Notes under the pieces: model-generated
What the model was told of the DNA's origin: nothing
The model's input: only the letters and a program-made list of their open reading frames with translations
Database searches by the model: none
Origin: Escherichia coli
GTDB taxonomy: Bacteria > Pseudomonadota > Gammaproteobacteria > Enterobacterales > Enterobacteriaceae
NCBI RefSeq assembly: GCF_003334385.1
Contig: NZ_QOWN01000137.1
DNA: 986 nt
Strand: one strand, 5' to 3'
Position numbers and translations under genes: made by a program
Part shown: positions 1-986 of the stretch, in pieces
Layout of the letters: the number at the start of each line of letters is the position of its first letter
How positions within the stretch are numbered: position 1 is the first letter of the stretch

Positions 1-986
1 GGGCCTGCATCACCTTTGGGACCAGCTGCACCAGCCGGTCCCCGTGGGCCTGCGGGCCCCACTGCACCAGGTGCGCCAGGTTCCCCCCTGTCCCCCTTCG
101 GTCCGGGGACTGCTGCCCGGGTTGCTGCCTCTTCTGCCTTCGTTTTTGCTGCCTGCACTTCTGCCATTACCGCTTTCACAGCCTTTGGGGTTGCCGCTTT
201 TGTTTCATCATCGCTGTTGGTATCGCTGCTCAGCTGTACAACACCTTTCTGTGATGTGCTGGCATCCGGAACACTGGCGACACTGCCTGCGGGACCCGCA
301 GGACCTGCGGGGCCGGTTTCTCCCCGAGGGCCTGCGGGACCTGCCGGACCTGTTGCGCCGGGTTCACCTTTATCCCCTTTCGGGCCGGTTTGCCCTGCCG
401 GACCCTGTGGTCCGGGTGGTCCGGCCTCTCCACGTGGGCCGGTGTCACCTTTCGGCCCCGGCGGTCCGCCCGGGTCACCTTTATCGCCCTTCGGTCCCTG
501 TGGACCTGTTTCTCCCCGTTCTCCCTTTGGCCCCGGCTCACCTTTTGGTCCGACCGCCCCCGTTGCCCCGGCTGGTCCCTGTGCCCCTGTGGCACCCTGT
601 GGACCTGTGTCCCCCTTCTCGCCCGCCGGTCCCCGGGCATTCTCTGCCCGTTTCTTCGCTTCCTCTGCACTCGCCGCCGACGCTTCAGCACGCTTCAGGA
701 TTTCCGCTGCCACCGCTTCCAGCTCTGCAAGCGCTTTCGGGTAATACTGCGCCTCATCCTGTTCCATCAGAAATTTATTCAGCGTTCCCGGCTCAGAATC
801 CGCCTTCACCAGAATGTCACCCACATACGACGGGGCGTACCCTTCCGTGTTCAGCGTCACCCGGTACCACCCCGGCTCCACATCAAAACTGTAACTGCCG
901 GTTTCCCCCGGCTGCCCCTGCGCCACCGTGGTGACTATCACTGTCTCTGTGGTGCGTCGCGCTTTCAGCTCTATGGTGCATCCCGG
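1..986 (-). CDS. stf: Phage side tail fiber protein, Stf-like, with collagen-like Gly-X-Y repeats; internal fragment, partial at both ends (N-terminus lies beyond position 986, C-terminus beyond position 1)
   Basis: Minus-strand frame with codons complementing 984-986 down to 3-5 is open for all 328 codons; I checked it codon by codon. Translation N to C: [328 protein letters not shown]. The N-terminal part resembles, from memory, the N-terminus of phage lambda Stf (CTIQLKARR...SQPGTLNDFL), and the VQLSS...AATPKAVK motif is the phage tail-fibre repeat signature. Codon usage (CTG Leu, AAA Lys, GAA Glu) is enterobacterial. The symbol stf is a family-level assignment, not a specific orthologue. 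No search was run. Confidence 0.92.
3..104 (-). repeat. Collagen-like Gly-X-Y repeat tract 2 (residues 295-328), at least 11 triplets, continuing beyond the window start
   Basis: [34 protein letters not shown] has perfect Gly periodicity from G295 to G328 and is truncated by the window edge. Confidence 0.88.
105..164 (-). other. Region encoding a short Ala/Lys/Glu-rich helical spacer (residues 275-294)
   Basis: [20 protein letters not shown] lies between the fibre repeat and the second collagen tract. Helix prediction is from composition only. Confidence 0.4.
165..254 (-). other. Region encoding a phage tail-fibre repeat motif (Phage_fiber_2-like), residues about 245-274
   Basis: [30 protein letters not shown] closely matches the conserved repeat remembered from lambda Stf and related fibres ([25 protein letters not shown]). 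Identified by eye, not by HMM. Confidence 0.75.
285..632 (-). repeat. Collagen-like Gly-X-Y repeat tract 1 (residues 119-234): 18 plus 20 triplets separated by a single extra Gly
   Basis: Gly occurs at every third residue from G119 to G170, then GG at residues 173-174 (+ coordinates 465-470) shifts the register by one, and periodicity continues from G174 to G234. X and Y positions are rich in Pro, Ala, Lys, Glu, Thr and Gln, typical of bacterial and phage collagen-like sequences. Confidence 0.9.
633..776 (-). other. Region encoding an Ala/Glu/Lys-rich predicted alpha-helical linker, possibly trimeric coiled coil (residues 71-118)
   Basis: Sequence [48 protein letters not shown] has a strongly helix-favouring composition with no Gly or Pro except one Pro. 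Helix or coiled-coil assignment is an inference from composition only. Confidence 0.5.
777..986 (-). other. Region encoding the conserved N-terminal tail-fibre domain (Phage_fiber_N-like, tail-attachment end), residues 1-70 of the window translation
   Basis: Residues [68 protein letters not shown] resemble the lambda Stf N-terminal region as I recall it. Composition is beta-rich and not collagen-like, and this DNA is less GC-biased than the collagen tract. The lambda comparison suggests the true start codon is roughly 15-20 codons beyond position 986. Confidence 0.75.

Follow-up and report, generated by a model that had tools for sequence, protein, structure and literature searches.

A collagen-like tract in a side tail fibre of the EPclC class from a P-Eib-like lambdoid prophage in Escherichia coli

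A stretch of Escherichia coli DNA of 986 nucleotides, referred to here as the window, carries a long run of Gly-X-Y triplets on its minus strand (nucleotides 285–632), which raises the question of what kind of protein bears such a tract and whether its chains could wind into a collagen-type triple helix. The analysis relied on what was observed here of the reading frame, the spacing of glycines, the order of domains, the place of the gene in the genome and its homology, and on homologues for the assembly of the fibre. We consider it highly probable (roughly 90%) that the tract corresponds to collagen domain 1 in a side tail fibre of 520 aa, which is of the EPclC type, encoded by a P-Eib-like lambdoid prophage of E. 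coli and forming, by homology, a homotrimeric collagen shaft.

The minus strand read from nucleotide 986 yields 328 codons without a single stop, while 13 and 15 stops interrupt the remaining two minus frames and each plus frame contains one or two, so that the minus coding frame is the sole one of the six open across the full window. The segment 285–632 falls on exact codon boundaries and corresponds to window residues 119–234, and the Pfam scan placed PF08400, PF03406 and PF01391 in this one frame. Likewise, substitutions with respect to diverged homologues fall mostly at codon position 3 of the minus frame. Specifically, the counts at positions 1, 2 and 3 were 52, 60 and 135 against the E. 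coli homologue L004 (approximately 77% identical over the aligned region) and 19, 17 and 63 against the Citrobacter farmeri homologue L005. The minus frame, on which the earlier note depended, thus held both for the glycine periodicity on re-translation and as the expressed frame in the homologues, as judged by the Pfam domains, the third-position bias and the annotated coding sequences. When both strands were compared with Rfam, no family reached its threshold and one sub-threshold match was returned (17.6 vs. 49.5 bits, E = 0.24); since no Rfam match exceeded the threshold, the window is taken to contain no RNA feature.

The tract, hereafter Col1, comprises 116 residues (full-protein aa 136–251; nucleotides 285–632, minus strand) with a GC content of 71% and values of 0.86 and 0.78 at the first and second codon positions. 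It is composed of 18 triplets (GPAGEKGDT to GDKGDP), an extra glycine, 20 triplets (GPPGPKGDT to GPAGPA), and the glycine of a trailing GSV. The total of 38 canonical Gly-X-Y triplets with one single-residue register shift (GDP-G-GPP) is exactly what the earlier note had counted, the extra glycine lying within GDPGGPPG. The first part, Col1a, consists of 18 unbroken triplets (471..632, minus strand; window aa 119–172), and the second, Col1b, of the other 20 (288..467, minus strand; window aa 174–233), with the glycine at 285–287 opening the GSV. Between them, the Gly-Gly of the GDPGGPPG motif (full-protein aa 187–194) forms the register break at 465..470 on the minus strand, a one-residue insertion that can equivalently be described as a G0G/G3G interruption. 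The longest in-register glycine run was 21, whereas shuffling the same residues gave longest runs that averaged 3.2 and never exceeded 9 (n = 20,000). The search with the PF01391 model that had been proposed for the tract gave two matches when Col1 was scanned alone, at 2.6e-9 in Col1a and 0.012 in Col1b; in the hmmscan of the whole window, PF01391 was listed for the second collagen tract only (4.9e-5) and not for Col1. The omission is perhaps attributable to the composition-bias correction and calls for caution in automated collagen annotation. In the homologues, the precomputed Pfam matches include Collagen on both flanks of the Pf2 repeat.

The surrounding parts of the protein, all on the minus strand, follow the order PF08400 collar, Ala/Ser heptad helix, Col1, Pf2 (PF03406), Col2, and small tip. 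The N-terminal PfN domain (PF08400, phage_tail_N) occupies 636..983 (window aa 2–117, Pfam E = 8.7e-32) and is cut by the window edge, leaving the first 17 residues of the protein outside. The collar beta-domain (full-protein aa 1 to ~94; 765–986, from aa 18) matches residues 1–91 of lambda Stf with E = 2.1e-30 (PDB 9E7M/9MGH). It is followed by an Ala-rich helical linker (full-protein aa 98–135; 633..746) of about five heptads, with L, A, A, A, A at the a positions and L, I, S, A, A at the d positions, which is almost invariant among homologues. An Ala/Ser pattern like that of these heptads has been described in PCoil and in the C-terminal 30 residues of PfN (PMC3368898), and the 38-residue linker probably forms a short trimeric coiled coil. 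The earlier placement of the tract directly after an attachment domain and a helical linker therefore stands, Col1 following a PF08400 domain whose last ~38 residues are helical Ala-rich heptads. Downstream of Col1 lies a non-collagen spacer (full-protein aa 252–311; 105–284) that contains the Pf2 phage tail fibre repeat (PF03406; 135..260, window aa 243–284, Pfam E = 4.7e-16). A second collagen tract, Col2, absent from the earlier note, begins at nucleotide 104 and leaves the window at nucleotide 3 (3..104) with 12 triplets visible; in the full-length protein (L003 7950–9512) it spans 117 residues (aa 312–428). The C-terminal tip of ~92 residues (aa 429–520; L003 9234–9509) is not covered by the window. 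Taking 0.286 nm per residue, a length of ~33 nm is expected for each collagen domain.

The window is 100% identical to a segment of E. coli 2018-166 (NZ_CP075632.1) located inside the 520-aa coding sequence WP_096849294.1, which is annotated as a 'prophage tail fiber N-terminal domain-containing protein' and situated downstream of gpJ. It is also 99.9% identical to phages PhiR12_1, _2, _2_star, and _4, for which E. coli K-12 or C is recorded as the host; a literature search on the PhiR12 and PhiR5 phages found no relevant paper. Additionally, the window is 99.0% DNA-identical over 976 nt to orf-401 of P-EibA (AF151091). The deposited orf-401 sequence lacks one codon in Col1 (GEAGPR-PQG, aligned with window aa ~189–191), which would introduce a second register break and could equally well reflect a sequencing error in a GC-rich stretch or a real variant.

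At every locus compared, the fibre gene comes after J, which encodes the tail tip; lom separates the two in P-EibA and Citrobacter. This position is that of lambda stf/orf-401. The next gene downstream encodes a DUF4376 protein that matches PHROG 'tail fiber protein' families (phrog_1141, 5.7e-78) and zero NCBIfam families, and is not a recognised Tfa. In PhiR12_1 (L001 7529–10696), this gene is split by an IS21-type element composed of a transposase and an ATP-binding helper; the two pieces, a 41-aa N-terminal and a 172-aa C-terminal one, both match the intact gene at L003 9529–10110. The DUF4376 gene is followed in the E. coli and P-EibA loci by an Eib/YadA-type gene. Specifically, a gene with a YadA C-terminal domain, of the Eib immunoglobulin-binding type, is located at L003 10906–12231, two genes downstream of the fibre gene, likewise in P-EibA, which marks the prophage as P-Eib-like. 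An ompC-annotated porin gene (L003 502–1665) was also found within the prophage tail block, between a tail protein gene and the gene of minor tail protein L, and the Citrobacter locus L005 also ends with a porin gene. OmpC is the receptor of lambda Stf, and a prophage-borne porin might change the susceptibility of the lysogen.

Collagen-like proteins of EHEC prophages were catalogued by Ghosh et al. in 2012 (PLoS One 7:e37872; PMC3368898) as EPclA to EPclD. The EPclC class has the architecture PfN-Col-Pf2-Col with a non-PfC C-terminus and usually without PCoil, and its entries include P-EibA ORF-401 (479 aa, Col 117 and 75) and ECED1_2081 (520 aa, Col 118 and 117) (PMC3368898). The protein described here shows the same succession of PfN, Col, Pf2, and Col, with a non-PfC C-terminus (no PF06820 match) and no long PCoil. 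It agrees with ECED1_2081 in its 520 residues and in its Col lengths of ~116–118 and 117, and differs from P-EibA ORF-401 in the length of Col2 (117 vs. 75 aa) and in bearing another variant of the C-terminal tip. Two-Col EPcl proteins have a conserved interruption, G-X-P-G-G-P-X-G (PMC3368898), and the break GDPGGPPG in the first Col fits it. The X and Y composition of Col1 (X: Pro 53%, D/E 32%; Y: K/R 29%, Ala 24%, Thr 21%, Gln 11%) agrees with that tabulated for the EPcl family (X: Pro 48.1, D/E 35.6; Y: K/R 31.0, Ala 21.2, Thr 20.2, Gln 14.5; PMC3368898). The fibre protein is thus a member of EPclC, and nothing of substance sets it apart. It also resembles EPclA and EPclB (E. coli O157:H7 ECs2717 and Z1483) in PfN, in the type of Col, with Pro and D/E in X and K/R/A/T/Q in Y, and in presumably acting as a trimeric side tail fibre, and EPclB additionally in the Col-Pf2-Col arrangement with the same interruption. 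In contrast, EPclA and EPclB carry a PCoil of 109–116 aa and a PfC domain (PF06820), where this protein has a helix of ~38 aa and an unrelated tip of ~92 aa.

The physical evidence for a triple helix comes from the same family. EPclA forms trimers that dissociate on denaturation, its Col-PfC fragment has a collagen CD spectrum, its Col melts sharply and reversibly with a Tm of 42 °C without hydroxyproline, and by EM the protein appears as a dumbbell with a rod-like, hinged stalk (PMC3368898); these experiments concern EPclA and partly EPclB, two proteins equipped with a long PCoil and with PfC for trimerisation. Together with the trimers of lambda Stf, they support by analogy the earlier view of the tract as a plausible collagen triple-helix shaft of a homotrimer, an idea that experiment has thus borne out in a close relative. 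The accompanying remark that structure and stability without hydroxyproline are poorly characterised is largely out of date in view of the EPclA data (PMC3368898).

The alternative that survives best, although we regard it as very unlikely, is that the Gly-X-Y tract serves as a flexible, low-complexity or disordered spacer that forms no triple helix. The lack of hydroxyproline, the register break, the absence of Col1 from the full-window Pfam listing and the fact that the collagen evidence derives from EPclA would all suit such a spacer, whereas a disordered linker has no need of a strict glycine periodicity that extends over 38 triplets and survives every indel among the homologues. Moreover, the composition is that of the EPcl Col domains, for which EPclA provides the collagen CD and the cooperative melt at 42 °C, and homology to lambda Stf makes the chains trimeric.

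This homology concerns the N-terminal part of the fibre. The lambda structure shows a collar of twelve Stf N-domains where gpV meets gpM; the N-domains are tied in threes by short linkers into trimeric bundles, giving rise to four trimeric side fibres, and virions of Ur-lambda carry four such fibres that speed up adsorption (PMC12617516). The fibre studied here shares with lambda Stf the N-terminal collar domain, the position of the gene after J/lom and the Pf2 repeat, a motif whose presence in lambda Stf had already been described (PMC3368898), and its trimeric state is assigned by homology to the trimer of lambda. Unlike this fibre with its two collagen domains, lambda Stf has a shaft made of a long Ala/Ser-rich coiled coil and a gp37-like distal domain, with no Gly-X-Y.

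Comparison of triplet numbers among homologous fibres, as the earlier note had suggested, was carried out on the best 120 homologues listed and indicated that lengths vary by whole triplets with the glycine register kept. Two Col domains were present in 116 of these 120, and in all 116 the residue number of the second Col domain is divisible by three, ranging between 54 and 216 aa. Among the same 120 sequences, unbroken Col1 domains are always multiples of 3 aa (33 to 66 aa), and those with a break measure 91 to 136 aa, corresponding to a multiple of 3 plus the extra glycine; the G-G break motif occurs in 18 of these sequences. The homologues hardly vary in the collar, in the helix and at the start of Col1 (…ENARGP), and the C-terminal tips fall into at least three divergent variants. 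Alleles that are at least 97% identical at the protein level differ by whole triplets only, always keeping the frame and the glycine register. For example, the PhiR5_1 allele has one additional triplet, PhiR12_5 has an additional four-triplet cassette, JNEC-KY179 lacks four triplets in Col2, and JE86-ST05 lacks seven. At the DNA level, Tandem Repeats Finder and a repeat search detected only weak, imperfect repeats of 9, 18 and 36 nt in the tract. Since there is no clean tandem array, the changes in triplet number are not fully explained by simple slippage between perfect repeats.

These indels also bear on the second alternative, which we rate marginally below the disordered spacer, namely that the gene is a decaying prophage remnant without a functional fibre and that the tract has no present function. 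Laboratory lambda dispenses with its side tail fibres (PMC12617516), the DUF4376 gene of PhiR12_1 has been split by an IS element, and near-full-length copies are limited to 38 of the 5426 complete E. coli genomes, all of which could be expected of a remnant; the 520-codon ORF is nevertheless intact in those genomes and in phages recorded with E. coli C or K-12 as host, the substitutions fall preferentially at third codon positions, and all indels keep the frame and the glycine register.

Hydroxyproline-free Gly-X-Y stalks similar to that of the prophage fibre are found in Scl1 and Scl2 of S. pyogenes, BclA of B. anthracis, Lcl of Legionella and the phage 'collagen like minor tail' family phrog_1806, where a triple helix stabilised by charge pairs is nucleated by an adjoining trimerisation domain. 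The partial NCBIfam matches to Scl2/SclB, Scl1/SclA and Lcl could accordingly suggest a bacterial cell-surface collagen-like adhesin of the Scl/Lcl type instead of a virion fibre, a reading to which we assign only a remote likelihood: these matches cover the Gly-X-Y part only and score far under the curated cut-offs (146 vs. 325, 124 vs. 400 and 120 vs. 500 bits, respectively), none of which was reached; the N-terminus is a Stf collar domain and not a signal peptide; and the gene is located in the tail module after gpJ. Unlike Scl, BclA and Lcl, the protein has no signal peptide, LPXTG motif or C1q-like head, and the likeness is confined to the repeat. Finally, the chance that the true product lies on the plus strand, with Gly-X-Y as a by-product, is negligible, as the long ORFs found there (16–744, 242 aa; 44–934, 296 aa) were rejected as shadow ORFs of GC-rich GGN-CCN coding, the plus frames having stops inside the window and the minus frame none, and as the minus frame is the one that agrees with the Pfam domains, with the third-position bias and with the CDS annotated in each record. 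One of these shadow ORFs is itself vaguely Pro/Gly-periodic.

Within the collagen shaft favoured here, the surroundings of the register break are rich in charge pairs. Of the eleven K/R-G-D/E motifs in Col1, three are no more than three triplets away from the break, namely two KGD motifs immediately before it and one two triplets after. K-G-E/D salt bridges have been reported to cluster round collagen interruptions, most strongly in viral collagens (PMC11923368), and by the same placement of such motifs the GG break is likely a stabilised local kink. A further suggestion, which remains tentative and in our estimation is rather unlikely, is that the whole-triplet length differences, the strictly conserved GG break and the nearby K-G-D pairs together constitute an adaptive ruler and hinge, with reach and bend tuned by recombination to the thickness of the O-antigen or capsule, such that the number of triplets helps to set the host range.

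The C-terminal tip has hardly any detectable relatives and shows no recognisable fold or family. A word-index and exhaustive search of 1.84 billion representative proteins returned only 12 matches, comprising eight close relatives, one distant protein (P0136) and three repeat-protein matches that were judged spurious. P0136 is a protein of 154 aa composed of no more than a short collagen stem and this tip. The three divergent tip variants share the elements Y-x-[IV]-G-[ST]-[YF], P-G-x-W and LFQR, in this order, near the end. The AF2 model of the tip, built from a six-sequence alignment, was mediocre (mean pLDDT 65.7), and a Foldseek comparison of this model with the PDB gave no match at E ≤ 0.001.

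On the basis of EPclA and lambda Stf, the following arrangement can be proposed. Three identical chains would be anchored on the tail by their N-terminal collar domains, where tube and tip join, as in the homologues, and would be brought into contact by the collar linkers and by the short Ala-rich coiled coil. The 116-residue Gly-X-Y tract would then wind into a homotrimeric collagen triple helix of ~33 nm, in which hydroxyproline may be replaced as a stabiliser by proline at about half of the X positions and by inter-chain charge pairs of the K/R-G-D/E type. The single GG interruption would probably act as a local kink or flexible point, and the Pf2 joint would lead to a second collagen rod of ~33 nm carrying the small C-terminal tip, presumably the receptor-binding part; nucleation of the trimer from the C-terminus is assumed. 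The collagen tracts would thereby serve as rigid modular spacers whose lengths may shift by whole triplets via recombination or slippage.

As a discovery, the tract carries little weight, being a correct but ordinary member of a family known since 2012: the family, the architecture, the interruption and the hydroxyproline-free stability were all published in that year, and a gene 99% identical to this one is named there. Its value lies in offering naturally modular, heat-stable and hydroxyproline-free collagen rods, with whole-triplet length variation between near-identical alleles. These could be a possible scaffold for recombinant collagen, and they provide a convenient system in which to ask whether fibre length affects the adsorption and host range of Stx/Eib-type prophages.
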